Shown: piece by piece, positions 572 through 25,986 of the stretch | How the letters are laid out: each line of letters opens with the position of its first letter | Numbering within the stretch: the stretch's first letter is position 1 | Assembly: GCA_039588295.1 (NCBI GenBank) | Contig: JBDHAB010000019.1 | Span: forward strand, 32,001-96,000 | Source of the DNA: Gemmatimonadota bacterium | Lineage (GTDB): Bacteria; Gemmatimonadota; Gemmatimonadetes; Gemmatimonadales; GWC2-71-9 | Direction of reading: 5' to 3' | Length of the DNA: 64,000 nucleotides | Notes under the pieces: model-generated | Database searches by the model: none | Told to the model about the DNA's origin: nothing | Seen by the model: only the letters and a program-made list of their open reading frames with translations | Program-made: the position numbers and the translations under genes

Positions 572-3268
572 ATGAATGTCGATCTGCGATCTCTGATTGG
601 AAGACTCAACCATGAGGCGCGAAATGCGATCGAAGCCGCGGCGGGTCTGTGCCTCTCGCGCACGCATTACGACGTCGAAATCGAGCACTACTTGATGAAG
701 GTGTTGGACGCAAGCGACGGGGACGTGGCGTTCATTCTCAAGCACTTCGGGGTGGACCGCTCGCGGCTGGCGAAGGACGTCACGCAGACCCTGGACCGGT
801 TCAAGACGGGCAATGCCCGAACGCCATCGCTGAGTCCCAGTCTCGTCAAGATGCTGTCGGAGGCCTGGCTCCTGGCGTCGGTGGAACATGGGGCGTCGCA
901 ACTCCGCACCGGTCACACCATGCTCGCGCTGGCAGTGAGCGAGGAGCTTCGGCGGCTGGTGCTGGAGACCAGCCGGGAGTTCCAGAAGCTCTCGGGCGAA
1001 GCACTGCGCCAGGACTTCGCGACGATCGTGGGGGAGTCCGTGGAGGAGACGGCGGCAGCCGCGGCACCGGTCGAAGGAGCGCCCCGCCCCGGGGGCAAGA
1101 CGCCCAATCTCGATCAGTTCACCGTCAACCTCACGCAACGGGCCAGGGACGGACACCTGGATGTGGTGCTCGGTCGGGACTTCGAGATACGGCAAGTGGT
1201 GGACATCCTGACTCGGCGACGCCAAAACAATCCGATCTTGGTGGGTGAAGCCGGGGTAGGGAAGACGGCTGTCGTCGAGGGGTTCGCCATGCGGATCGGG
1301 CAGGGGGATGTGCCGCCCGTGCTGAAGAACGTCACGATCCACACACTCGATCTCGCGCTCCTCCAAGCCGGGGCAGGGGTGAAGGGCGAGTTCGAGAATC
1401 GCATCAAGAGCCTTATCGAAGAGGTGCGCTCATCGGAGACGCCCATCATCCTGTTCATCGACGAGGCGCACACGATGATCGGTGCCGGGGGGGCCGCCGG
1501 TCAGGGGGACGCAGCCAACCTGCTCAAGCCGGCGCTCGCCCGCGGTGAGCTCCGAACGATCGCGGCAACGACCTGGTCGGAATACAAGAAGTATTTCGAA
1601 AAAGATCCGGCGTTGGCCCGGCGGTTCCAGTTGGTCAAGGTCGACGAGCCGACGGAGCCGTCCTGCGCCTTGATGATGCGCGGCGTCGCCCCGAGTCTGG
1701 AGAAGCACCATGGGGTGCGGATCCTCGACGACGCAATCGACGCCGCCGTGCGGCTGTCACATCGGTATCTGCCCGATCGACAGCTTCCCGATAAGGCCGT
1801 ATCCGTGCTCGACACCACGTGCGCCCGACTCGCACTTGGGCAGAGTGCGACGCCGGCAGCCATTGAGGACGCGAGGCGTACGCTCGACGACTTGGCGGTC
1901 CAGACCCGAGTGCTCGAGCGGGAGCAGGCAGTGGGCACGGACCATTCGGAGCGGTTGACCAGCCTCGCCGAGCAACGAGCAGAAACGGAGGCGAGACTGA
2001 CGTCCCTCACCGGACAGTGGGAGCAGGAGCGCGAGCTGGTGAAGCGGGTTCGGGAGTTGCGCGGGCAGCTCGAAGCGAGTGTCGCCGAGGAAGCGAAGCC
2101 GGCCAAGAAGAAGAGCGCCAAGAAGGATCTCGCTGCTCTCCGCGACGAGTTGGCAGGACTCACGGCGGAGCTCGACGCATTGCAGGGAGAAGCAGCCCTG
2201 GTGCCCGTAACGGTCGATTCCGACTTGGTGGGACAGGTCATTTCCGGATGGACGGGGATTCCGGTCGGCAAAATGCTGCGAGACGAAGTGGCGACCGTTC
2301 TCCGCCTCGAGGAGCACCTCGGACAACGCATCATCGGGCAGTCGCACGCGCTGGAAGGGATCAGCCAGCGCATTCGCACCTCGCGTGCGGGGAGCGAGGA
2401 TCCGAACAAGCCCGTTGGGGTCTTTATGCTCGTCGGCCCCAGCGGGGTCGGCAAGACCGAGACGGCCCTGGTACTCTCGGACTTGCTGTACGGCGGTGAC
2501 CGCAACCTCATTTCGATCAACATGTCGGAGTTCCAGGAGGCACATACCGTCTCGACGCTCAAGGGGTCGCCTCCCGGGTATGTCGGATACGGTGAAGGTG
2601 GTGTCCTGACGGAGGCGGTGCGGCGGCGGCCGTATTCCGTGGTGTTGTTGGATGAGGTCGAGAAGGCTCACCCAGACGTGCTCGAGCTGTTCTTCCAGGT
2701 CTTTGACAAGGGGGTCATGGAGGACGGCGAGGGTCGGCAGATCGACTTCAAGAACACGATCATCATGTTGACGACCAACGCGGGGACTGAGACGATCATG
2801 ACGCTGACGGCAGATCCGGAGACGATGCCGGATGCCGCCGGGCTCGCCAAGGCCCTGAAACCCGAGCTGAACAAGACCTTCAAGCCGGCGTTCCTTGGCA
2901 GGCTCGTGATTATCCCGTACTTCCCGATCCGTGATGATGCGATGAAGCACATTATCCGGCTCAAGCTCGGCAAGATCGAGCGGCGGCTCGCGGAGACGCA
3001 TCGAGTCACTCTGAAGTACGACGACACCATGATCGACGAAATTGCGGGGCGGTGTACGGAGGTTGAGAGTGGGGCGCGAAATGTCGACAACATCCTCACG
3101 AATACGATGTTGCCCGAGGTTTCTCGGCACTTGCTCGAATCTCTCGCGGAGGGAGCCAAGCTGGACATCATTCGAGTCAGCGTCGGTGACGGCGGCGCGT
3201 TTCAGTACTCGATGGAGTCAGCGGCAGGTGGGAGCAGCCGGGCTGCAGCGACGGGTGCACTCGCCTGA
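572..3268 (+). CDS. tssH: Type VI secretion AAA+ ATPase ClpV/TssH
   Basis: ClpV-type N-terminus (LIGRLN...AAGLCLSRTHYDVEIEH); two Walker A motifs GEAGVGKT and GPSGVGKT; T6SS context. Confidence 0.95.
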   Translation: MNVDLRSLIGRLNHEARNAIEAAAGLCLSRTHYDVEIEHYLMKVLDASDGDVAFILKHFGVDRSRLAKDVTQTLDRFKTGNARTPSLSPSLVKMLSEAWLLASVEHGASQLRTGHTMLALAVSEELRRLVLETSREFQKLSGEALRQDFATIVGESVEETAAAAAPVEGAPRPGGKTPNLDQFTVNLTQRARDGHLDVVLGRDFEIRQVVDILTRRRQNNPILVGEAGVGKTAVVEGFAMRIGQGDVPPVLKNVTIHTLDLALLQAGAGVKGEFENRIKSLIEEVRSSETPIILFIDEAHTMIGAGGAAGQGDAANLLKPALARGELRTIAATTWSEYKKYFEKDPALARRFQLVKVDEPTEPSCALMMRGVAPSLEKHHGVRILDDAIDAAVRLSHRYLPDRQLPDKAVSVLDTTCARLALGQSATPAAIEDARRTLDDLAVQTRVLEREQAVGTDHSERLTSLAEQRAETEARLTSLTGQWEQERELVKRVRELRGQLEASVAEEAKPAKKKSAKKDLAALRDELAGLTAELDALQGEAALVPVTVDSDLVGQVISGWTGIPVGKMLRDEVATVLRLEEHLGQRIIGQSHALEGISQRIRTSRAGSEDPNKPVGVFMLVGPSGVGKTETALVLSDLLYGGDRNLISINMSEFQEAHTVSTLKGSPPGYVGYGEGGVLTEAVRRRPYSVVLLDEVEKAHPDVLELFFQVFDKGVMEDGEGRQIDFKNTIIMLTTNAGTETIMTLTADPETMPDAAGLAKALKPELNKTFKPAFLGRLVIIPYFPIRDDAMKHIIRLKLGKIERRLAETHRVTLKYDDTMIDEIAGRCTEVESGARNVDNILTNTMLPEVSRHLLESLAEGAKLDIIRVSVGDGGAFQYSMESAAGGSSRAAATGALA

Positions 3269-3307
3269 CCGACGCATCACCACATTTGGCAAGGAACGAG
3301 GCAGCGT

Positions 3308-5281
3308 ATGCCGGAGTACTCTCAGGCCAATCGCCCCATCCGAGTCGAGACCGCGCTAGGCGAAGACGTGCTGCTGTTGGAGGCATTCTCCGGTGAGGAG
3401 CGTGTCTCCGCGCCGTATGCGTTCACGCTCGAGCTGGTGTCGCAGGATGCCGCCATAGAGCCGGTGAAGGTACTGCGGTCTCCGGCAGCAGTCATGATTG
3501 ACTTACCCAACGGGGAGAAACGTGCCATCCACGGGTTGATCAGTCGGTTCGTGCAGCTGGGACAGACTGGAGGCGCGGACCTGACTGCGTATCGTGCGGA
3601 GTTGGTTCCGTGGCTCTGGTTTCTCTCTCTGTCGTCCGACTGCAAGGTCTTCCAGAACATGACCGTTCTCGAGATCGTGGAGCAGGTGTTCAAGGACCTG
3701 GGTTACTCCGATTTCGAGATCAAGTGCGTGAAGAGCCACCCCAAGCGAGAGTTCTGTGTCCAGTATCGGGAAACGCATCTGAACTTCGTGTCTCGGCTGT
3801 TAGAGGAAGAGGGCATCTTCTACTTCTTCAACCACACGAGCTCCAAGCATGTGTTGACCCTGGCCGACGACGTCAGCGCCGTCAAACCGTGTCCCGGCCA
3901 GGCGGCCGCGCGGATGGCGGTGAAGTCGGGTGGGTGGCAGGAGGAGGACGTCGTCACGGCGGTCGAGCGGGAACATGCAGCGTATATCGGGAAGGTCACC
4001 CTCCGCGAATTCGACTATCTGCAACCGTCACTTCGATTGGAAAGCTCGGTGTCTGGCGACGGGCACGGGGAGATCTACGACTACACGTTTCCGGGGAACT
4101 TCAAGTCGCCAGACACCGGTGATCAATTGGCACGCCTGCAACTCGAGGAACAGGAGCAGTGGCATGAGGTCGTGCGAGGTGACGGCACGTGCCGCTCATT
4201 TCAGAGCGGCTGCCGCTTCGACCTCAAGGAGCACTACCGAGGTGAGGTGAATCAAGCGTACCAGTTGCTGCGAGTCCACCATGCGGCTCGAACGGGGGGC
4301 TACCGCTCCCGGACCGAAGACGAGTTCGACTATCGCAACGGCTTCGTCGCAATTCCGCACACCGTGCCATTTCGCCCACCGCGCATCACGCCGAAGCCGG
4401 TGGTCCAGGGCTCGCAGACGGCGCTGGTGGTGGGGAAGGCGGGCGAGGAGATCTGGGTGGACAAGCATGGCCGGGTGAAGGTGCAGTTCCACTGGGATCG
4501 GGACGGCAAGAAGGACGAGAACAGCTCGTGCTGGGTCCGCGTGTCGAGCACCTGGGCTGGCAAGGGGTGGGGCTTCGTGCAGATACCGCGTATCGGGCAG
4601 GAGGTGATCGTCGATTTCCTCGAAGGTGACCCGGACATGCCCATCATCACCGGCCGAGTCTACAATGCCGAACAGGTGCCGCCGTATGCCCTGCCGGCGA
4701 ATCAGACCCAGAGCGGGGCCAAGTCACGCAGCTCTAAAGGCGGTGGCACGGACAACTTCAATGAGCTCCGGTTCGAGGACAAGAAGGGAAGTGAGGAAGT
4801 CTACCTGCAGGCCGAAAAGGACCTCACAGCCAAGGTCAAGAATGACGCGTCGGCGCAGATCGGCAACGACCGCACGGTCGTCATCCAGAACAACGACACC
4901 TTGACCGTGGAGAAGGGAGACCAGGCCGTCGACATCAAGATGGGCGACCAGACGATCACCTTGGGCCAAGGGAATCAGAACATCGTCATCAAGATGGGCG
5001 ATCAGAATACCCAGGTTGACATGGGGAACATGAGCACCAAAGTGTCAATGGGTAACATCTCCACCAAGGCCGATCTCGGTGCGGTGGCCGTAGAGGGGAT
5101 GCAGGGAATCGAGTTCAAAGTTGGGGGGAGCAGCGTGAAGATCGATCAGATGGGAGTGACCATGAAAGGCATGATGGTCAAGATAGAAGGCCAGGTTCAG
5201 ACCGACGTCAAGGGTCTGATGACCAACATCAACGGCGACGCCATGCTGAAGGTCAAGGGTGGCATAACCATGATCAACTAG
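3308..5281 (+). CDS. vgrG: Type VI secretion spike protein VgrG/TssI
   Basis: CVQYRETHLNFVSRLLEEEGIFYFF, GRVKVQFHWDR, PRIGQEVIVDFLEGDPDMPII, NELRFED motifs; gp5-like beta-helical C-terminus; no effector extension. Confidence 0.95.
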   Translation: MPEYSQANRPIRVETALGEDVLLLEAFSGEERVSAPYAFTLELVSQDAAIEPVKVLRSPAAVMIDLPNGEKRAIHGLISRFVQLGQTGGADLTAYRAELVPWLWFLSLSSDCKVFQNMTVLEIVEQVFKDLGYSDFEIKCVKSHPKREFCVQYRETHLNFVSRLLEEEGIFYFFNHTSSKHVLTLADDVSAVKPCPGQAAARMAVKSGGWQEEDVVTAVEREHAAYIGKVTLREFDYLQPSLRLESSVSGDGHGEIYDYTFPGNFKSPDTGDQLARLQLEEQEQWHEVVRGDGTCRSFQSGCRFDLKEHYRGEVNQAYQLLRVHHAARTGGYRSRTEDEFDYRNGFVAIPHTVPFRPPRITPKPVVQGSQTALVVGKAGEEIWVDKHGRVKVQFHWDRDGKKDENSSCWVRVSSTWAGKGWGFVQIPRIGQEVIVDFLEGDPDMPIITGRVYNAEQVPPYALPANQTQSGAKSRSSKGGGTDNFNELRFEDKKGSEEVYLQAEKDLTAKVKNDASAQIGNDRTVVIQNNDTLTVEKGDQAVDIKMGDQTITLGQGNQNIVIKMGDQNTQVDMGNMSTKVSMGNISTKADLGAVAVEGMQGIEFKVGGSSVKIDQMGVTMKGMMVKIEGQVQTDVKGLMTNINGDAMLKVKGGITMIN

Positions 5282-17297: not shown

Positions 17298-17968
17298 GGC
17301 TCCCCGCCTTGATCGGTGAGAACCGAGTTGGCTACAAACCCCACCCGCTCACCGTCCACGAACACCGACCACCACCCAAGCCGCAGCATCGCCACCTCGA
17401 CCCGCTCCCCGGGCTGGAGGACCCGTATTACAGCAGACGGCACGCGCGGTGCCCCACGGAGGTTCGCCCAGGTTGTGGCCCAGCGTGTCTGCGTGGGTGG
17501 CAGTTGGGGCGTTTGGGCGGCCGGCAGTTGGGCAGGGCGCAGTTCCGCCTCCATCAGTGGTGCGGACGGGAGTGACTCGACGGTCGGTTGCGGCAGCGGA
17601 CGTACGACGGATTCGGGAGTTGCGCTGGGCGGCGGTGAGGGCTCGCCCAACGAGGGCGCCGGAGGCGTCGTGGTGCCTCGCTGCGCGGTGAGCGCCCAGA
17701 GGCCCCACGCCGCGAGCACGAGCGCGCCGATTCCGGCGGCAGACCATATGGCGAGGCGCAGGCGTCGGCGGAACTGCCGCGGGTACCCGCAGAACTTGCA
17801 CTCCGCCGTCGATCGGGCCACGAGCTTCCCGCAACGGCGGCACTCGACAACCTGCCCGTCCTCGCTCTCTGACATCGGATTCTGCAGGAGGAGGTGCGAG
17901 CACTTGGGGCAGACGGAGGCCACGCTCAGCACCGTCTGCCCGCACTTCGGACACTTGATCAATGCCAT
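17294..17968 (-). CDS. Double zinc-ribbon / TM / Pro-rich linker / SH3-like protein
   Basis: Four CxxC motifs (CPKC, CPKC, CRRC, CKFC), one TM helix, C-terminal ANLR..P...VI..L.PGE.V....GWW.V....GFV SH3 pattern. Confidence 0.75.
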   Translation of the reverse strand: MALIKCPKCGQTVLSVASVCPKCSHLLLQNPMSESEDGQVVECRRCGKLVARSTAECKFCGYPRQFRRRLRLAIWSAAGIGALVLAAWGLWALTAQRGTTTPPAPSLGEPSPPPSATPESVVRPLPQPTVESLPSAPLMEAELRPAQLPAAQTPQLPPTQTRWATTWANLRGAPRVPSAVIRVLQPGERVEVAMLRLGWWSVFVDGERVGFVANSVLTDQGGEP

Positions 17969-18007
17969 GGGGGGCGTCTTGCGGTCTGCAGGCCCGAGGT
18001 CCGGTGC

Positions 18008-18244
18008 CTACACCTCGCGGCGCCAGTCGCGGCGGAAGACCTGCACGTGGCCACAGTGGTCACAAGCCTCGACGTGCCAGAGCACATCCGGCTCAGCGCT
18101 TGTGACGCCCAGTTTCGCCAGTCCGCCGGAACCCGAGTAGGCATCGGTCTCCAGGCGGGTTGCATAGACGCCTTGCAGACATACCCCGCAGGGTCGTTCC
18201 GGCAGGGATCGCCGCTCACGAGCTGGTGTCTGGGTTGCCGTCAT
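18008..18244 (-). CDS. Small zinc-ribbon protein
   Basis: CGVC...CDHCG; GGAGA RBS; co-oriented with 17294-17968. Confidence 0.6.
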   Translation of the reverse strand: MTATQTPARERRSLPERPCGVCLQGVYATRLETDAYSGSGGLAKLGVTSAEPDVLWHVEACDHCGHVQVFRRDWRREV

Positions 18245-18406
18245 GGGTGTGCTTCTCCGTCTGGACGGGTGGAGGTTGCTACCGGAACCTTAACCCGTCG
18301 CGGGGTCCTGGGCAAAGTAATCTCGGGACCCCTTCATGCGACCTTCATGGAGGCTTCATGGCAGGTGATGAAGCTCGATGGGGTCCTACCCGCCGGAGGG
18401 AGCGGC

Positions 18407-19669
18407 ATGTCCGCGAATGAAGTCGAGCGATCGCTGACGCTGACGGCGAACCCCTGGCTCCGCACCGCCAGCTTCGTCACGGGCGCGGGCATGGTGGTCG
18501 CCTCGGTCGTGACCATGCAGCACTACTTCGCTGCCAACTTCCCATCATCCATCTTCGAGGGGTCGTTCTGCGATCTGAACGCCTTCTTCAACTGTGATAG
18601 CTCCGCCTACTCGGTGATCTCGGCCGTGGCCGGTGTCCCGCTGGGGTACTTCGGGTTGATGGTCGGGGGGCTCGTCATGCTCGGTGCCATGTTTCCATCT
18701 GCGGCATTCGAGCGCACCAACAAGACGATCGCTGTGGTGAACGGCATCGGCGTGGTGGCGCTCTTGGTCTATTCGGTCGCCGTGCTCAAGAGCCTCTGCC
18801 TTCTGTGCACCGGCTACTACGTGTTCGCGCTGCTGAGCCTTGCGCTCTTCTGGCGCTATGGCATTGATGGTGGCCGGCGTGGGCTTGCGCGACGGTTCCT
18901 GCGCCCGTCCACACCGCACCTCGTGGCGTTTGGCGTATGCCTCCTGGGCGGTGCATACGCGCTTGCGTTGTTCCACCGCGCCAAGGAACAGGCGCGATCG
19001 GGTGGGGTGGCTGCCAGGATCGTGGAGCAGTACATCAACCTGCCTCTGGTTCCCAACCCGAGCATCATCTCCCCGTTCATGACCGCCCGTGCTACGGAAC
19101 GGTTCGAGGACGCTCCAATTCGCCTCATCGAGTATGGTGACTTTCTTTGTTCGGACTGTCGCTACCTCAACGAACAGTTGGATCGCCTGAAAGAGGAGTT
19201 CCGGGGTCAGATCAACATCGCGTTTCAGTTCTTCCCGCTCGACGCCCAATGCAACCGCGTCGTGAACAAGGACAAGCATCCGGGCGCCTGCGACCTGTCG
19301 TACATGGCGGCATACGACCCCGCGAAGTTCGCCGCGATCCACGACGAGGTGTTCGCCAACATGACTGCCGCCAAGGATCCTGCCTGGCGCGCCGATCTGG
19401 CCCGCCGCTACGGGGTGGAGGCGGCCCTCGCGGACTCCGCTACCCAAGCGTTGGTGCTGCGCATGATCCAAACGGGGGCGGAGTACGAACAGACTTCGGA
19501 GCGGTACGCATACGGAATCAGATCAACGCCAACGTTGATCCTCAACAACCGCATGGTGATTGGCACGTTTCCCTACGAGCAGCTTCGCGCGATCTTCCAG
19601 GCACTCGTGAATGAGCACGAGCAGGGAGACGAAGGACGGTTTCTCGAGAACTGGGTGGACGACGGCTAG
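18407..19669 (+). CDS. VKOR-family disulfide-bond formation protein fused to a DsbA-like thioredoxin domain
   Basis: VKOR loop C..C (FCDLNAFFNCD), GVP...G, CLLC; C-terminal DFLCSDC and STPT. Confidence 0.88.
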   Translation: MSANEVERSLTLTANPWLRTASFVTGAGMVVASVVTMQHYFAANFPSSIFEGSFCDLNAFFNCDSSAYSVISAVAGVPLGYFGLMVGGLVMLGAMFPSAAFERTNKTIAVVNGIGVVALLVYSVAVLKSLCLLCTGYYVFALLSLALFWRYGIDGGRRGLARRFLRPSTPHLVAFGVCLLGGAYALALFHRAKEQARSGGVAARIVEQYINLPLVPNPSIISPFMTARATERFEDAPIRLIEYGDFLCSDCRYLNEQLDRLKEEFRGQINIAFQFFPLDAQCNRVVNKDKHPGACDLSYMAAYDPAKFAAIHDEVFANMTAAKDPAWRADLARRYGVEAALADSATQALVLRMIQTGAEYEQTSERYAYGIRSTPTLILNNRMVIGTFPYEQLRAIFQALVNEHEQGDEGRFLENWVDDG

Positions 19670-19735
19670 AACCGGGGTCCGTCGATCTCGGCTTCGAGGC
19701 CCTGCACGCTGGGATCCACCGATCCCGCCCGTTAC

Positions 19736-21133
19736 TCATCGCCACACCTGTCCGAGGAATGCCTGAACCTCCGGTACCCCACCCTGGAGGATGAGGTATC
19801 CGTCATGCGGTTCACGCTCGGTGGTCTCGCCGGCGAGCGTGGTCGTCATGAGCTCCTGCACGGCGCGCGGATCGCCGGGGTGCACGCCGAGTGCCCAGCA
19901 GAGTTTGACGAACGCGACCTCGGGCAGCATGTTGGCGAGCGGAACGACCCCGAGCTCTAGGATCTCCCGCCCCGTCTCGTACACGTGCATTTGCACGAAG
20001 CCCCAGAGGGTCTGCAGCGTCATGTACATGTGCACGCCGGCGTCACGTGCCCGCTCGAGTGCCGGGTAGATCTTGCGGTTCACGTGTCCGAGTCCGGTGC
20101 CGGCGATCACGATTCCCTGGTAGCCACGGTCGACGAACGCGTCAATGATGTCCCCGTGCATTCCAGGGTAGTAGTACATGAGCGTCACACGCTCGTTGTA
20201 CTTCGCGAAGATTGTGACGTCTCGATCCTCGCGTCGCGGAAGGAAGTCGTCCTTGAACGGTGTGATCGTGTCGCGATCGACCATTGCGAGGGGGATGTCA
20301 CCCAACGTACGGAACGTGCTTCGGTAGGAGCTGTGCATCTTGCGGACACGGGTGCCGCGGTGCAGCAGGTTGTAGCGATCGGACGTCGGGCCGAACATGC
20401 AGACCATGACCTCGGCAATCGGCCCGTGCGCTGCCGTCCATGTGGCGTTGATGAGGTTCTGCGCCGCGTCGGATGACGGTCGATCGGAGGATCGTTGGCT
20501 CCCCACCAGGACGACCGGCACCGGTGGCCGCTGAACCATGAAGCTCAGTGCGGCTGCTGTGTGATGCATGGTATCGGTGCCATGGCCGATCACGACTCCG
20601 TCGTATCCGTCGGCAATCGCATCACCGATCTTCTCCGCCAACACCAAATACTGCTCCGGGCCCATGTTCTCCGAGAAGACACCGAACAACTTCTCGGTCT
20701 CGAGATTGCAGATGTCGGCCAACTCCGGCACCGACCCGTAGAGCTCTCCGGGGCTGAAGGCGGGGATCACCGCACCGGTGCGATAGTCGAGCCGTGACGC
20801 GATCGTGCCCCCGGTCCCAAATAGCTTCACGCGGGGATTGGCAGGGTCGACCGGAAACGCCTTCTCTGGAATCCTGTAATGCGCCTCCCGATACCCGACC
20901 TTCTCGATCTCGAGCACTGTGTCGTGACGGATACCGACGTTGTACCCGCTCCCCAGCTTGAGCACCAAGTGTAGGTCATCGCTCGTTTCCGAGCGTGGCA
21001 GCAACAGCCCCTCGAAGTCACCGCGGGTCGTTCGTGCCACGACCTCGCACCACACGGTGATTCCGGAGCGTGCCATCAGGTCGCGCGTCGGGCCGCGATA
21101 GCCGCGGTAGGGATCGCTCTGCTGGTCGCTCAT
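19736..21133 (-). CDS. gatD: Glu-tRNA(Gln) amidotransferase subunit D (GatD)
   Basis: N-terminal LVLKLGSGYNVG domain plus asparaginase fold TGGTIASRLDY.TGAV, HGTDT, GSQRSSDRPSSD, RKMHSS.R..F, GTGLGHV; ATGA overlap with gatE. Confidence 0.92.
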   Translation of the reverse strand: MSDQQSDPYRGYRGPTRDLMARSGITVWCEVVARTTRGDFEGLLLPRSETSDDLHLVLKLGSGYNVGIRHDTVLEIEKVGYREAHYRIPEKAFPVDPANPRVKLFGTGGTIASRLDYRTGAVIPAFSPGELYGSVPELADICNLETEKLFGVFSENMGPEQYLVLAEKIGDAIADGYDGVVIGHGTDTMHHTAAALSFMVQRPPVPVVLVGSQRSSDRPSSDAAQNLINATWTAAHGPIAEVMVCMFGPTSDRYNLLHRGTRVRKMHSSYRSTFRTLGDIPLAMVDRDTITPFKDDFLPRREDRDVTIFAKYNERVTLMYYYPGMHGDIIDAFVDRGYQGIVIAGTGLGHVNRKIYPALERARDAGVHMYMTLQTLWGFVQMHVYETGREILELGVVPLANMLPEVAFVKLCWALGVHPGDPRAVQELMTTTLAGETTEREPHDGYLILQGGVPEVQAFLGQVWR

Positions 21134-23202
21134 GACGCATGCTCGGGGGCGGGTTCTCGCAACGCGGCAGCCAGACGCTGCCGAATTGCCTGAGGGTCGA
21201 CTCGGCCAAGAAACGCTGGTACGACTTGGCCCATGGCCCACCGCAGCCTCGCGTCGAGAGAGCGTCCGTTGAGCTCGAGCGCCGTTGCCGCAACCTGGGC
21301 AATCCGCTGGTCGAGTCGCGCACCGTCTTGAGGTGCGGGCTGATAGCCCACGACGATTTCGTCGGCGCCGACGTCGGGCTGCCTAGTGAGGTCGTCGAGC
21401 ACCCGCGCCGCTGCCTCGGGGCGGAGCGCGCCGGCTTCCAGCGCGCGGGCAAGGGGACGAAGTCGCGCCGCGTCGGGCAGGGAGGCTGCGCCGCGGCGGG
21501 AGTGGTAGGGCCACCGCTTCTCGAGCGCAGTGGCGAGTCGCCGTGCGGCACTGCGTGACGCCGGCCGTACCTCGTCGTACACATCCGCCCACGGTGCGCT
21601 GGCAAGCCGGCGTGCGCCCCGTGCGTCGAGCCCAAGGTCACGGTACCGTGCCTCCCGTTCCCACGGTCGCTCCGGCAAACGCTCGCGAATCTCCGTCACG
21701 GCGGCGTCGGTGATCGGTAGGGGCGGCGTATCCGTGTCCGGGTACATTCGGTCCGGACCCGGCAGGATCCGCTCGAATCCCGTCGTGCTGTCCGCGTGGG
21801 CCTGGCGCGTTTCGGCAGGCACGCCCACCAACGCTTCGCCGGCGCGCAGCAGCACCTCGCGGGCGGCGGTGGCTGCGTCCGCGTCATCGCCCCACACCAG
21901 TACGAGCGCATCACCGGACTCGGCCCCGACTTCCCGACCGAGGCGCTGCCACACGAGCGGGTCCAGGCCGCCGCGGTCATTCCCGGAATGGGCCAAGAAC
22001 GGGCGGTGTACCGGGCAGGCAATCACGCGCACGCGTTCTGCCAGCTCGTTGGCGAAGGTGGCCCCGGGTTGGGTCGGGTGGTCGAGGAGCTGGTTGAATC
22101 CCGGGAGCCGCACGACACAGATGCGATGTCCGCGGCCGAGCGCCTCGAGGATAGGCCGAGCCGTACACGCACGGAGCAATGAGGCGGCGTCCCCAACCAA
22201 GTGCGACACCTCCCAGGGCCTTCCGGTGGATGGAAGCGCCAGCATCGTCGGTTCGACACCACGCCGGTCGAGCGCGTGCTTGATCCGGAGCAAGTTGAGT
22301 TGGCGAAACGCCTCGACGTGGACCAAACGTGGCAGCCCGCGATGGTGATGTACACCTTTGATCTCGACCCGCCGGCCACCGGCGATCGAGACGTTCACGT
22401 CCTGGCGGGCTGCGCCAGGCCCCCGTCGCACTTTGCCCGTGGCCTGCGCCACTCGTGCCAGGAGCCGTGCACCGGCCTGCAGCTCGAGCGGGGTCAGGAA
22501 CTCTGGTTCCGTGACTGTCTCGGTGAGCGGCATGCCGAGGCGATCGGTGCGGAAGGTGATGCGATGACCGATGTCGGAGACTTCGCGACAGGAGTCCTCC
22601 TCGAGCGACAGCTGCCTGATGCTGAGGTCCCGATCCACACCGAGCTCCGGGGCTCGGAACGGAATCCGCCCGGTCAGACCCACCATGGCCGTTCGCTGGA
22701 AGCCGGTCGGGATCGACCCGTCGAGATACTGCTTGCGCATCACGTGGAGTTCCGAAACCAAGTTGAGATTGAGGAGCTGGGCGACCTCGAGGGCGATACG
22801 CACCGCCTCCCCGTCGATCTCAAACGGCGGGGTATCGTCCATTTCGTAGGTGCAGACCGATCCGCGCTCGAGGAGGTAGACAATCTCCTTGCGTGTCTTG
22901 AACTCCATCAGCGCCGTCCCGTCGTACTCCCCCAACTCGCTCAACGTCGGTCGCATGTGTCGCAGCACTTCACCGTCAACACGCGTGACCCGATGACCGG
23001 GTGGACAGCGGCAGAACAGCTTCGATTTGGTGTGGAGCTGTTGATGCACCTCGAGGCCACCCATGAAGCCCAGCACCTGGTAGTCCTCGTGGCGCAGTTC
23101 CCCGTATGCCCGATCGGGAAAGTCGAGCACGGGATCATGCCGCGGATTGACGTCCCCGGGGGGGCGGACGCCGTGGTTGGGTGCCCCGTTAGGAGGCGTC
23201 AA
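21130..23202 (-). CDS. gatE: Glu-tRNA(Gln) amidotransferase subunit E (GatE)
   Basis: GLEVHQQL..KLFCRCP, RPTLSELGE, MRK..LDGS..GFQRT, LEEDSCR, DRLG.PL.E, RQDVNVSI, RVEIKGV, AspRS-like insertion, P.ETR, PG..RMYP.TD; start uncertain (TTG). Confidence 0.92.
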   Translation of the reverse strand: MTPPNGAPNHGVRPPGDVNPRHDPVLDFPDRAYGELRHEDYQVLGFMGGLEVHQQLHTKSKLFCRCPPGHRVTRVDGEVLRHMRPTLSELGEYDGTALMEFKTRKEIVYLLERGSVCTYEMDDTPPFEIDGEAVRIALEVAQLLNLNLVSELHVMRKQYLDGSIPTGFQRTAMVGLTGRIPFRAPELGVDRDLSIRQLSLEEDSCREVSDIGHRITFRTDRLGMPLTETVTEPEFLTPLELQAGARLLARVAQATGKVRRGPGAARQDVNVSIAGGRRVEIKGVHHHRGLPRLVHVEAFRQLNLLRIKHALDRRGVEPTMLALPSTGRPWEVSHLVGDAASLLRACTARPILEALGRGHRICVVRLPGFNQLLDHPTQPGATFANELAERVRVIACPVHRPFLAHSGNDRGGLDPLVWQRLGREVGAESGDALVLVWGDDADAATAAREVLLRAGEALVGVPAETRQAHADSTTGFERILPGPDRMYPDTDTPPLPITDAAVTEIRERLPERPWEREARYRDLGLDARGARRLASAPWADVYDEVRPASRSAARRLATALEKRWPYHSRRGAASLPDAARLRPLARALEAGALRPEAAARVLDDLTRQPDVGADEIVVGYQPAPQDGARLDQRIAQVAATALELNGRSLDARLRWAMGQVVPAFLGRVDPQAIRQRLAAALREPAPEHAS

Positions 23203-23475
23203 TGGTCTCGTCCATTCGTACGACCATGCGCGCTGCGCCCGTGAGGCGATCCGACCGAGGTTCCGTACGGCACGCCTGAAGATACACGGGGAAGGGAGCG
23301 ACGGTATCGGTACTTGCTCTGTGTCGGTGCGTCGGTTTGTGGCTCAGCGCACAGCGCTCGGTGGTGCGGAGTGGCGCTATTGTGTCCCGGAGTGAGCGAT
23401 GCGACCCCAGCGGCAGGGGTGCGGAACTCCACGGTTGCGAATAGCTTTGTGTTCTCCGACGAAGGACCCACGAGG

Positions 23476-24159
23476 ATGGCCAAAGGCAAACCACCCCAGA
23501 ACCGACATGATGATTTGATGGCGGCGGAGGTCGACAAGCTTCTGAAGAAGCTGCCTCATGCCGACCCCTCCCTGTCGGGGGAGCGCGTGGCGCAGCCCGA
23601 GCCAGGCGCTGCGCCAGGTAGGCCTCCGGTGTCTGGTCACCGCCGTGAGATCCAGGGAGGTGCGCCGAGGGTACCGCGGCCGCGCACACCTGAAGAGGAA
23701 CGCCGAGCGAATCTCGGTGTCTGGGGCCTCGTGGCGCTCGGGGTCGTGCTGGGGGTAGCGTTGACCCAGTGGCCGTACAACGCGGCGTGCGGTCTTGCGT
23801 TGCTGTGGTATGTGGGGGCCGTCGCCACCATGCTCGTCGTCGGTGGGTGGTGCGCTTTGTCATCGTGGGACCAGCGGCTTGGGGTCGCGCACGTTCTGTC
23901 CCTCATACTCGTGTTCTGGGGAATCGTGCTGTCCGCTGAGGTGATTCTCCCTCGCATCGGGTATTCCGTCGACAAAGCGACCTGGCGTTGTCGGGTGGCT
24001 GAGCCCGCACGTCCGTCAGCGACACCGGTCCCGGTCGTTCCGCCGTTGCCCGCTCCCGCGCCGGCCGATCTGGAGGTCGATTCGACCGTCTCGACCGAAC
24101 AGCCATCGCAGCCGGGCACCGACTCCATCGTAGCTGAGCCGGGCGATTCGATAGGATAG
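23476..24159 (+). CDS. Hypothetical membrane protein
   Basis: EVDKLLKKLP N-terminus, about three TM helices, Pro-rich tail. Confidence 0.7.
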   Translation: MAKGKPPQNRHDDLMAAEVDKLLKKLPHADPSLSGERVAQPEPGAAPGRPPVSGHRREIQGGAPRVPRPRTPEEERRANLGVWGLVALGVVLGVALTQWPYNAACGLALLWYVGAVATMLVVGGWCALSSWDQRLGVAHVLSLILVFWGIVLSAEVILPRIGYSVDKATWRCRVAEPARPSATPVPVVPPLPAPAPADLEVDSTVSTEQPSQPGTDSIVAEPGDSIG

Positions 24160-24210
24160 ACCGAAGACGCGACGCACAGGGCCCCGGCGCCGGGTGTCGC
24201 GCCTGACGGG

Positions 24211-25986
24211 CTAGTGCTCCCGGACCTTCTGAATGAGCGCCAGGGGGTGGATGGGTTTGCGGAGGATGGATTGGATCCGCAGATCCGCCACTTCCTCGGC
24301 GACGCTCACGGGCTCGCCGCTCGTCACCAACACGATACCGGTGTCCGAAGCGTATTGCCGTACTTGCTCCATCGTGCTCCGCAGCGTGTCTCCAAGTTGA
24401 TCGGCGTCGAACACCGCCGCCGCGATGGTGTTGCCGTGCACCCGGAGGAGGTCGACGGCGGCCTGAACGGTATCTGCGGACAAGACCTTGAGCCCGGCCG
24501 CCGCAAGCCCGCCGCGCGTTTCCGCCAGATCGGATCCTCCGTCGGCCAACACCACGGTGCCCTCCAGCTGGACCTCGGGTTCACCTGCCACCGATTCCCG
24601 CTCGTTGGGCAAGTTCAAGGGGCGGACAATGCACTGGTAGCCACGGATCGACCCGTCGGTACTTGCGCGGCGAGTCGCTGAGAGCAGCGCCTGAAACGTC
24701 GCTCCACTTTGGGTGGTGAGTTCGACTTCGAGATCGCCGACGGCGCCGATCGTGTTCATCTGAACCTGGAATCGGCGAATATCGACTTGCCGCGCGAACA
24801 GCCTCCGTGCGTCGAGGCCGACGAGTTCGTCCCGTTTGTATCCGAAGAGCTCGACAGCCGCGGCGTTGACCGCCTCGATCTCACCGTCACGAGCCGTGAG
24901 GTAGATCGCGTCCCAGCACTGTTCGAACAGACTCTGGTATTGTTCCTCGCTCTGGTGTACGGATTCCTCGAAGGCTCGGCGTGCCTTGACGTCGCGCGCC
25001 ACGGCGAGGACGAACTCCTCGGAACCGATCCTGTGGTGCGCGACGGCGATCTCCACCGGAAAGCTGCTTCCGTCCCGCCGTCGATGCTCGCCTTGCAGCA
25101 TGAGCGGCCGCCGGGTGTCACGCGTGTCGGTGAACTCCAGCTCGGCCTCCACCGGGGGCTGCACGGGAAACTCGAGTTGGAGCTCGTGGAGACGGTGTCC
25201 GATCACCTCTTCCCGGGCGCGGCCGAGCCAGCGGGCCGCCGTTTCGTTGACATCGATGACTTCTTCGGTGCGGGGATCTGTAACGAAGATTGCGTCGCCC
25301 GCATGATCCATCAGGGTGCGAAACCGTCGCCACAGCTTCTCGCGTTCCGCGCGGCTGCGCGTTTCCTCCTGAATGGTCGCGTTTGCCCGATCGAGGTCGG
25401 CGGTGCGCTCCTCGAGCGAGCGCTGCAGGTCGCGACAAGCTCCCTCGAGCCGCTGGACGGCGCGCACATACTGTGTGATGTCGTGCGCGACCAGGGTCGC
25501 GGACACCACCCGGCCGTCGCGGATGTTCGGCGTGATGCGGCAGTCGTACCACGCGTCGGGATCGTGATTCTGTAGACCGGCCAGCTCGTGGTGCTGCGAT
25601 AGGCCGGTCTCGAACGCCTGTGCTAGCGATTCAGCCACGCCTTCGTGCTGATTCGGTGGAATCCAGTCGAAGATGCTTGACCCAATGAGCTCGTCTTCAG
25701 ACCGATCGCCGAGCGCGCAATTGGCGAATAGGATCTCGCCGGTCTGCCGCACGATGAACACTGGATCGCGCGCGTCCGCCCGCGTGGCCGACGCCTCGAG
25801 CGGCGGGGGTGCGGGGCTGAACGCACTGTCCCGGATGCCACCGATCCGAGCGGGGGGCTTCAGCGATTCATCGCTCCCGCTTGGTTCGGAGCTCGTCTTT
25901 GTCTGACCCAGCAATGGGTAGCGTTCAGTCATCAGTCTCACCGAAAAGGGCCGGCTCGCCCGCGACTCGCTGTCGCGCTCCGTCAT
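24211..25986 (-). CDS. PAS-coiled coil-PAS-PAS-receiver protein with no kinase or other output domain
   Basis: Three PAS/PAC patterns (N.A, RRDGS.FPVE, ARD); C-terminal REC with AVFD, LVTS and RKP. Confidence 0.8.
   Translation of the reverse strand: MTERDSESRASRPFSVRLMTERYPLLGQTKTSSEPSGSDESLKPPARIGGIRDSAFSPAPPPLEASATRADARDPVFIVRQTGEILFANCALGDRSEDELIGSSIFDWIPPNQHEGVAESLAQAFETGLSQHHELAGLQNHDPDAWYDCRITPNIRDGRVVSATLVAHDITQYVRAVQRLEGACRDLQRSLEERTADLDRANATIQEETRSRAEREKLWRRFRTLMDHAGDAIFVTDPRTEEVIDVNETAARWLGRAREEVIGHRLHELQLEFPVQPPVEAELEFTDTRDTRRPLMLQGEHRRRDGSSFPVEIAVAHHRIGSEEFVLAVARDVKARRAFEESVHQSEEQYQSLFEQCWDAIYLTARDGEIEAVNAAAVELFGYKRDELVGLDARRLFARQVDIRRFQVQMNTIGAVGDLEVELTTQSGATFQALLSATRRASTDGSIRGYQCIVRPLNLPNERESVAGEPEVQLEGTVVLADGGSDLAETRGGLAAAGLKVLSADTVQAAVDLLRVHGNTIAAAVFDADQLGDTLRSTMEQVRQYASDTGIVLVTSGEPVSVAEEVADLRIQSILRKPIHPLALIQKVREH

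Follow-up and report, generated by a model that had tools for sequence, protein, structure and literature searches.

The two-subunit amidotransferase GatDE is best described from archaea, with the enzymes of M. thermautotrophicus (2D6F) and P. abyssi (1ZQ1) as solved examples. Reviews as recent as 2022 have it as archaea-only, and they use this distribution in reasoning about the last common ancestor and about the absence of GlnRS from archaea (PMC9499178). Here, we analyse a gatE-gatD operon from a sediment bacterium. It occupies positions 19736..23202, on the minus strand, of a 64,000-nucleotide stretch (the window) from a Gemmatimonadota genome of the order Gemmatimonadales (assembly GCA_039588295.1, contig JBDHAB010000019.1, positions 32,001 to 96,000). 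Within a large bacterial clade of GatDE, the operon is an ordinary member. We suggest, with about an even chance of being right, that GatDE stands in for a lost GatCAB in this lineage, converting Glu-tRNA(Gln) beside GlnRS.

Compared with the archaeal enzymes, the operon encodes the same two subunits, with the same domain order and the same catalytic-core residues. However, the host is a bacterium with GlnRS, so that GatDE is not the sole route to Gln-tRNA(Gln), and its tRNA(Gln) carries the pair U1-A72, not A1-U72. The GatE of the window is mostly about 30-39% identical to archaeal GatE and has a very divergent tail, and GatE of the bacterial clade has DGSI, EEDxC and MYPDTD where the archaeal protein has DGSN, EEDxA and MYPETD. 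With the bacterial GatCAB, GatDE has the chemistry and the catalytic fold of GatB/GatE in common. It differs in that GatD is of the asparaginase type while GatA is an unrelated amidase-type protein, in having no GatC, and in the AspRS-like insertion of GatE. According to reviews, GatCAB reads U1-A72, the pair present in the host tRNA(Gln); S. aureus GatCAB requires it, while A1-U72 and the D-loop are what M. thermautotrophicus GatDE recognises. GatCAB is carried by most relatives (GatB at E<=1e-60 in 116 of 151 Gemmatimonadota genomes), and here it seems to be replaced by GatDE.

Bacteria with direct synthetases beside a tRNA-dependent amidotransferase are described for Deinococcus, Thermus and Bdellovibrio (PMC4206432). 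The same surplus, GatB together with GlnRS, is found in 40 of the 140 Gemmatimonadota genomes without GatE. In those three genera, however, GatCAB and a second AspRS serve asparagine synthesis, whereas the genome studied here has GatDE, one AspRS that could be found and genes of the asparagine synthetase type. No paper joining GatDE with Gemmatimonadota was found in literature that covers journals other than subscription ones.

The gatE-gatD operon

The open reading frame of gatE, the kinase/transamidase subunit, lies at 21130..23202 on the minus strand and runs from a TTG at 23202 to a TGA stop at 21132-21130 (690 amino acids); the public gene call has a GTG start at 23130 and 666 amino acids. 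The gene for the asparaginase-type glutaminase subunit, gatD, follows on the same strand at 19736..21133, with 465 amino acids from the ATG at 21133, in an open frame that covers 19736..21241. The two genes share the four bases ATGA (21130..21133, minus strand), in which the ATG of gatD (21133-21131) can be read directly over the TGA of gatE (21132-21130). This overlap suggests translational coupling of the two genes.

Profile searches identify both proteins at the level of the subfamily. GatE passes the NCBIfam model TIGR00134 (390.9 bits, cut-off 319.55) and falls just below the cut-off of NF003107 (449.3 bits against 456), while the best GatB model reaches 138.5 bits, far too low for its cut-off of 338. 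GatD passes both TIGR02153 (483 bits, cut-off 324) and NF003217 (477.3 bits, cut-off 310), and the type I asparaginase subfamily model scores lower on it, at 366.2 bits. These equivalog scores exclude an ordinary GatB next to an AnsA, the alternative that the original prediction had named. In Pfam, GatD_N (46.8 bits), Asparaginase (192 bits) and Asparaginase_C (102.2 bits) are all over cut-off on GatD, and GatB_N matches GatE with 145 bits.

The catalytic features are kept in both subunits. TGGT, HGTDT and RKMHS are seen in the translation of GatD, where TGGT, HGTDT and RKMH line up with the same motifs of 2d6f_A; HQQL and LEED are seen in GatE. Catalysis by GatD is described in a review as using a Thr nucleophile and a Thr-Lys-Asp triad. 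The GatE of the window keeps the residues at columns that do not vary among 35 GatE sequences from bacteria and archaea, and HQQL, DGS..GFQRT, LEED, RQDVNVS, EIKG and YP.TD are conserved in the alignment.

Structurally, residues 16-657 of GatE align to 9-627 of the 633 residues of 1zq1_C (288 bits), and residues 11-441 of GatD to 2-428 of the 435 of 2d6f_A (379 bits). An AlphaFold model of GatE from the 35-sequence alignment has a predicted local distance difference test (pLDDT) of 90.4 and a predicted template modelling score (pTM) of 0.88. Its best Foldseek folds are 1zq1_C and the GatE of 2d6f, with template modelling (TM) scores of 0.79-0.80 on the target, and GatB chains come next, at ranks 4-15. 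The AspRS-like (GAD) insertion is backed by this model and by the alignment to 1zq1 GatE, in which it makes up about 150 extra residues (~291-440); the region is modelled confidently, local AspRS matches are in the Foldseek list (E about 5e-4), and Pfam GAD stays under its cut-off (13 bits, cut-off 23.4). The tail of GatE is helical in the model with pLDDT about 90, its sequence alignment to 1zq1_C is of low confidence, and the Foldseek alignments cover only ~520-535 columns.

Most of what had been read from the letters of this locus holds, namely the full-length gatE followed by gatD with an ATGA overlap, the signature motifs of both and the AspRS-like insertion. The host-like base composition is also confirmed, as the two 2-kb bins over gatE and gatD have a GC content of 0.663 and 0.650, inside the window range of 0.602-0.683. 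The C-terminal YqeY-like region of GatE had been called degenerate, in agreement with a GatB_Yqey score of 14.4 bits that is under the cut-off of 27. The identity, the intactness and the bacterial ancestry of the two genes are secure. The best reading, from sequence and model, is that GatE and GatD form an amidotransferase with intact catalytic cores, the activity being predicted.

A bacterial GatDE clade

A scan with a GatE profile, using one genome per species, gave more than 600 matching stretches, of which the best 80 were examined taxonomically. Every one of these 80 is bacterial, and they come from more than 15 phyla. They include Gemmatimonadota, Bacteroidota, Ignavibacteriota, Planctomycetota, Krumholzibacteriota, Fermentibacterota, Zixibacteria, Cloacimonadota, Holophagaceae, Aminicenantes, Myxococcota and Lentisphaerota, and among them are two cultured Bacteroidota, Perlabentimonas gracilis and Labilibaculum sp. 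K2S. The original prediction had presented GatDE in this bacterium as a rarity, a view that the bacterial origin of these 80 best matches does not support. Its description of GatDE as archaea-specific stands in the reviews but fails in the databases, where public annotation already labels the bacterial homologues GatE.

Against 1.84 billion cluster representatives, the first ~50 matches are 43-72% identical to the GatE of the window, and identities then fall to 30-39%. The labelled representatives in this lower band are archaeal (Thermoprotei, Thorarchaeota, Thermoplasmatota, a DPANN lineage and Heimdallarchaeota; five of ten clusters with a named member).

The GatE trees, rooted with GatB, were made with FastTree (73 rows) and with IQ-TREE under LG+C20 (43 rows). 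Bacterial GatE forms one clade with support 100 in both, with 40 rows including the long-branch representative P0221 in the former and all 20 of 20 rows in the latter, and its stem is about 0.53-0.55 changes per site. This bears out the idea of a distinct, old bacterial clade, which had been one of two suggestions made from the sequence. A representative labelled Heimdallarchaeota is sister to the bacterial clade (support 81 and 88) and another representative is next (87), although support for the nodes below the bacterial clade is not strong and a single metagenome-assembled record is the source of the Asgard label. A single ancient transfer, from an Asgard-like archaeon, is the most likely origin of the bacterial GatDE clade.

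Within the clade, ten Gemmatimonadota rows, the GatE of the window among them, group together with support 99. The GatE of one further genome of the same order (G030, locus L036) groups with Holophagaceae (Acidobacteriota), apart from the other Gemmatimonadota, which suggests that the phylum acquired GatDE more than once. The nearest homologues are 63-70% identical and are named Gemmatimonadota or Gemmatimonadales, some of them on contigs of 3.0 and 4.1 Mb. In the genus, GatE is above cut-off in eight of nine genomes, this one included, and the ninth has a truncated match; GatE is 65-71% and GatD 81-86% identical between members, and the operon is passed down vertically.

The order of the two genes is also a feature of the clade. 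In 77 of 89 loci gatD comes after gatE on the same strand, and seven of the other 12 loci are cut by contig ends; the order with its overlap holds across the bacterial clade. One public protein of 969 amino acids (P0101, on a 61,894-base contig) has GatE, GatD_N and asparaginase domains in one chain, as either a fusion or a call reading through the ATGA overlap.

The differences between bacterial and archaeal GatE at otherwise conserved motifs were followed across 39 bacterial and 29 archaeal-type sequences in one alignment. Y-L-D-G-S-I-P, EEDxC and MYPDTD are found in all 39 bacterial proteins, while the archaeal-type proteins have DGSN in 23, EEDxA in 24 and MYPETD in 25 cases. The DGSI and MYPDTD deviations that had been reported for this GatE are thus real, but they mark the whole bacterial clade and not this protein alone. 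At the seven sites compared, the bacterial signature is complete in the Heimdallarchaeota-labelled representative, and three further representatives, one of them labelled Thorarchaeota, have it in part. As the substitutions beside the catalytic motifs occur in Asgard-labelled GatE, they need not mean a new function in bacteria.

Conservation is also unevenly spread along the protein. In the first core segment, the median identity of the window GatE is 80% to other Gemmatimonadota, 61% to other bacteria and 41% to archaea, and the corresponding values for the tail are 45%, 16% and 18%.

Synthetases, amidotransferases and tRNA(Gln) of the genome

The genome has 4.52 Mb in 160 contigs and is 96.3% complete with 1.6% contamination. 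An inventory of its synthetases and amidotransferases, which the original prediction had proposed as a check, finds GlnRS, AsnRS and a single GluRS, and neither GatB nor GatA. In the profile search for GatB only GatE matches, with 72.6 bits, and no GatA is above cut-off, the best match being an amidase with 192.9 bits (cut-off 481.1). GatCAB is therefore not found in searches for GatB and GatA (GatC was not searched for), which leaves GatDE as the one amidotransferase found.

GlnRS is on contig C47 with 723.7 bits (cut-off 425.8), and its alignment to E. coli GlnRS scores 684.8 bits. Y211, S227, C229, F233, D235 and Q255, which give E. coli GlnRS its specificity for glutamine, are unchanged, and so are the residues that form the amino-acid pocket and read the acceptor. 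The idea that this enzyme is really a glutamate-attaching one was rejected on the alignment together with these residues. AsnRS scores 475.2 bits, GluRS is present in one copy, and three genes of the asparagine synthetase type are over cut-off. The single AspRS is of the bacterial type (C38:26361..28228) and is split into two overlapping frames (469.9 and 131.9 bits), by either a frameshift or an assembly error.

Both tRNA-Gln genes (CUG and UUG) have U1-A72 and A73, so that the U1-A72 pair expected for a bacterial tRNA(Gln) is indeed found in each. The tRNA-Asn also has U1-A72, with G73. In the phylum, tRNA-Gln(CUG) is nearly invariant, and 20 of these genes were fetched for comparison. Nine genomes that have GlnRS only, from three genera of one family (loci L123-L131, genomes G090, G153, G112, G154, G145, G135, G105, G096 and G151), are without U1-A72; eight have A1-U72 and one G1-U72. 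They have no amidotransferase, and the remainder of their tRNA-Gln(CUG), positions 2-71, is 97-100% identical to that of the genome studied here. Besides this genome, U1-A72 is kept in three GatCAB genomes, in three GatDE genomes (G138, G086 and G008) and in five further genomes with GlnRS only. The pattern would fit U1-A72 being constrained in genomes with an amidotransferase, those with GatDE among them, but it is weak evidence because the loss was probably one evolutionary event.

A division of labour between the isoacceptors was also considered, with GlnRS serving only the UUG species (CUG has C3-G70 and UUG has G3-C70). It was rejected, as the same acceptor stem is found phylum-wide, including the nine GlnRS-only genomes. 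The aragorn count for the genome is 68 tRNA genes, among them 8 for Met and 5 for Ile(GAT). At least 13 of the 68 are on contig C14, possibly as a tRNA gene array, and one of those resembles tRNA-Asp but is unusual in that its CCA is encoded and position 37 is U.

Distribution in the phylum and loss of GatCAB

The 151 genomes of the phylum sample, this one included, were searched for GatE at E<=1e-40 and for GatB at E<=1e-60. The tallies include the genomes G084 and G122, and that of the genus relatives includes G021; none of them carries GatE. GatE is present in 11 genomes, in eight of 82 genera and four families. GatB is found in 116, GlnRS in 70 and AsnRS in 149 of the 151.

Among the 11 carriers, three have both GatB and GlnRS (G001, G087 and G028), six have GlnRS without GatB (this genome, G004, G086, G016, G079 and G138) and two have neither (G008 and G095). 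The 140 non-carriers divide into 40 with GatB and GlnRS, 73 with GatB only, 21 with GlnRS only and six with none of the three. GatB is thus missing in 8 of 11 carriers compared to 27 of 140 non-carriers (present in 3 of 11 and 113 of 140, respectively).

The six genomes in which GatB, GlnRS and GatE are all absent at these thresholds are G085, G107 and G125, each of one to three contigs, and G015, G116 and G057. They either have divergent forms that were missed or use another route. Since this group includes genomes of one to three contigs, some of them nearly closed, the thresholds or the assemblies miss genes, and absences should be read with care.

A tree of GluRS from 31 genomes, whose branching follows how the genomes are related, places the GatDE carriers of the family in one well-supported clade, which also includes one genome with GatB and GlnRS (G071). 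Outside of it branch other genomes with GatB and GlnRS, and then genomes with GatB only. Judged from these trees and tallies, this would fit an order in which GatCAB was first alone, GlnRS was added, GatDE was then acquired and GatCAB was finally lost.

Glutamate, glutamine and aspartate metabolism is a loose theme among the neighbours of gatDE, and a specific link, to glnS, is seen in this phylum. In close relatives (L038, L041, L042, L043 and G086) glnS comes directly after gatD, and it is nearby in G087 (about 2.5 kb downstream of the gatE end) and in L044 (upstream). The 43 downstream neighbours comprise three GlnRS, two Glu/Asp symporters (both in Gemmatimonadaceae), six NUDIX proteins (all in Bacteroidota), two ribosome hibernation factors and otherwise a mixed set. 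The 37 upstream neighbours comprise two glutamine synthetases, two aspartase-like lyases, one Asp-Ala exchanger and two sigma-54 activators, the rest being mixed or without a match. No universal partner gene is found among these 43 and 37 neighbours, and none of the eight tRNA genes in the 89 loci scanned is a tRNA-Gln. In several Gemmatimonadota genomes, glnS and gltX (GluRS) are adjacent (G138, C57:2615-6417; G139, C33:10198-13398; G071, C1:11875-14897).

Ten of the better-assembled carriers from other phyla were also examined, which together with the 11 of this phylum gives 21. Four of the ten have GlnRS without GatB, including both cultured strains, two have GatB without GlnRS and three have both. 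The tenth is an error-prone assembly with broken copies of GlnRS and GatB. AsnRS is found in nine of the ten.

Proposed role of GatDE and alternative explanations

The reading that we prefer, at roughly even chances, is that GatDE has taken the place of GatCAB in this lineage and converts Glu-tRNA(Gln) beside GlnRS. By homology to the solved archaeal enzyme, GatD would release ammonia from glutamine or asparagine, and GatE would phosphorylate the side-chain carboxyl of the glutamate on tRNA(Gln) and then amidate it. GatDE would have entered Gemmatimonadales cells that already held GlnRS and GatCAB, with GatCAB lost afterwards. Because the loss of GatCAB would have followed the arrival of GatDE, the enzyme most likely does the former job of GatCAB. 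The single GluRS would make Glu-tRNA(Gln), whose conversion by GatDE would run alongside GlnRS, and GatDE would have to act on a bacterial tRNA(Gln) with U1-A72. The substrate of GatDE, the mischarging of tRNA(Gln) by GluRS and the order of gain and loss are what we infer.

Several observations weigh against this proposal. The host tRNA(Gln) is without A1-U72, the pair read by archaeal GatDE, and the GatE tail, which binds the D-loop in the archaeal complex, is only 16-18% identical to GatE outside of the phylum. This genome has GlnRS, with the residues that are glutamine-specific in E. coli GlnRS retained. Only two of the 21 carriers, G008 and G095, showed neither GlnRS nor GatB. The lack of glnS in G008 is probably an assembly gap, because the G008 counterpart of the gene next to glnS in G001 and G004 stops 140 bases short of a contig end; the genome can therefore not serve as a proof of function by GatDE alone, and G095 stays a single unexplained case. 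No genome examined clearly depends on GatDE. Neither is there any sign that GluRS mischarges tRNA(Gln) in a comparison of seven GatB-only with ten GlnRS-only genomes, where all 22 differing columns simply follow phylogeny. Arg358 as a marker of discrimination by GluRS is said not to transfer between phyla (PMC3927822). The pattern of GatB loss may, finally, reflect one or a few events, as the carriers are kin.

An artefact of assembly or binning, in which an archaeal fragment was joined to a bacterial contig, is extremely improbable. The genome is a metagenome-type assembly of 160 contigs, but gatDE has a host-like GC content and bacterial genes on either side on one contig of 105,833 bases, the gene order upstream is shared with other genomes of the genus, close homologues lie on the 3.0 and 4.1 Mb Gemmatimonadota contigs, and GatE falls within the bacterial clade and not an archaeal one. 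Contamination or mis-assembly had been raised as a possible objection, and the flanks, the genus synteny and the position in the tree all speak against it, although the contigs of four sediment metagenomes on the locus bridge no junction; they are short and low-depth and leave parts uncovered. Pieces from one sediment run (X1) are identical to the window in gatDE and its flanks, and this run may be the source sample. A redundant leftover without selected function, on its way to being lost, is quite unlikely. GlnRS and AsnRS would meet the need of the cell, and the distribution in the phylum is patchy. However, in this genome and its genus both reading frames are intact over their full length in spite of the 65-71% identity of GatE, GatD holds its 81-86% identity, the ATGA coupling is kept, and the catalytic residues do not vary among 39 bacterial sequences of many phyla.

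It could instead be speculated that GatDE amidates Asp-tRNA(Asn) and makes asparagine on the tRNA, as the GatCAB of Deinococcus and Thermus does, which we consider rather unlikely. With GlnRS present the glutamine route is unnecessary, tRNA-Asn also has U1-A72, and the two aspartase-like lyases and the Asp-Ala exchanger among the upstream neighbours, all in other phyla, would suit such a role; GatCAB is known beside GlnRS and AsnRS for this use in other bacteria (PMC4206432). Yet AsnRS is present here, in all 11 carriers of the phylum and in nearly all of the carriers outside it, and this genome has its three asparagine synthetase-type genes. Archaeal GatDE rejects tRNA(Asn), according to a review, and glnS, not aspS or asnS, is the only translation gene repeatedly beside gatDE. 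Somewhat more credible, though still improbable, is that the bacterial clade has a new substrate or role, be it an aminoacyl-tRNA of another kind, a carboxylate that is not on a tRNA, or a back-up role confined to particular nitrogen or stress conditions. The absence of a clearly dependent carrier would agree with this, and so would the substitutions fixed by the catalytic motifs in 39 of 39 sequences (Y-L-DGS-I-P, EEDxC and MYPDTD), the fast-evolving tRNA-binding tail of GatE, and the glutamine synthetases (2 of 37 upstream) and Glu/Asp symporters (2 of 43 downstream) among the neighbours elsewhere. The same substitutions are, however, found in Asgard-labelled GatE, the catalytic-core invariants and the full GatE fold are retained, and there is neither a recurring partner across phyla nor a tRNA-Gln among the tRNA genes of the loci.

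With a similarly low probability, GatDE could be no housekeeping route to Gln-tRNA but an accessory enzyme that was acquired once from Asgard-like archaea, spread over many phyla and does what GlnRS and GatCAB cannot. It may then act on a different aminoacyl-tRNA or carboxylate, or use asparagine as a donor under particular nitrogen conditions. It may also provide an amidotransferase beyond the reach of toxins aimed at GatCAB, as the type VI secretion toxin Tse8 reportedly is.

Genomic neighbourhood and other features of the window

Upstream of gatE, a small open reading frame of 163 amino acids (23637..24128, minus strand) has no Pfam or NCBIfam match. Matches by tblastn with 43-51% identity over residues ~47-123 are found in five loci of the genus (L030-L034). 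Beyond it lies a PAS gene at 24211..25986, with matches in five loci (L030, L031, L032, L034 and L035), and both genes recur at the same place upstream of gatE within the genus. No Rfam match at E<=1 is found in 19000-24500. Upstream of gatE there is no sigma-70-like site, and a single terminator-like site is below what is expected by chance.

The other neighbours of gatDE in the window are unrelated to it: a zinc-ribbon/SH3 protein, a VKOR-DsbA fusion, the PAS protein, and M28 and S46 peptidases. The window also encodes ClpV (TssH), VgrG, TilS, FtsH, dihydropteroate synthase, CdaA and OmpA-type lipoproteins. At 572..5281 (plus strand), TssH/ClpV (1290 bits) and VgrG (645.6 bits) belong to type VI secretion. 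After VgrG, up to about 10246, there are five open reading frames of 200-273 amino acids without NCBIfam match, which could be effector, immunity or adaptor genes. The fusion of VKOR with DsbA/thioredoxin at 17894..19669 (plus strand) weakly matches a family of thioredoxin-like (seleno)lipoproteins, and a tRNA-Sec gene is present in the genome.

Implications

A large and coherent bacterial GatDE clade alters the archaea-only picture of this enzyme, as its GatE is Asgard-like in sequence and its hosts have U1-A72 and often GlnRS beside it. Bacterial GatDE is a natural experiment on how the tRNA identity of an amidotransferase changes, and on the keeping of two routes to one aminoacyl-tRNA. As cultured carriers exist in Perlabentimonas gracilis and Labilibaculum sp. 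K2S, the question of function is testable at the bench. The particular value of the genome studied here is that GatDE is the sole amidotransferase found in it.

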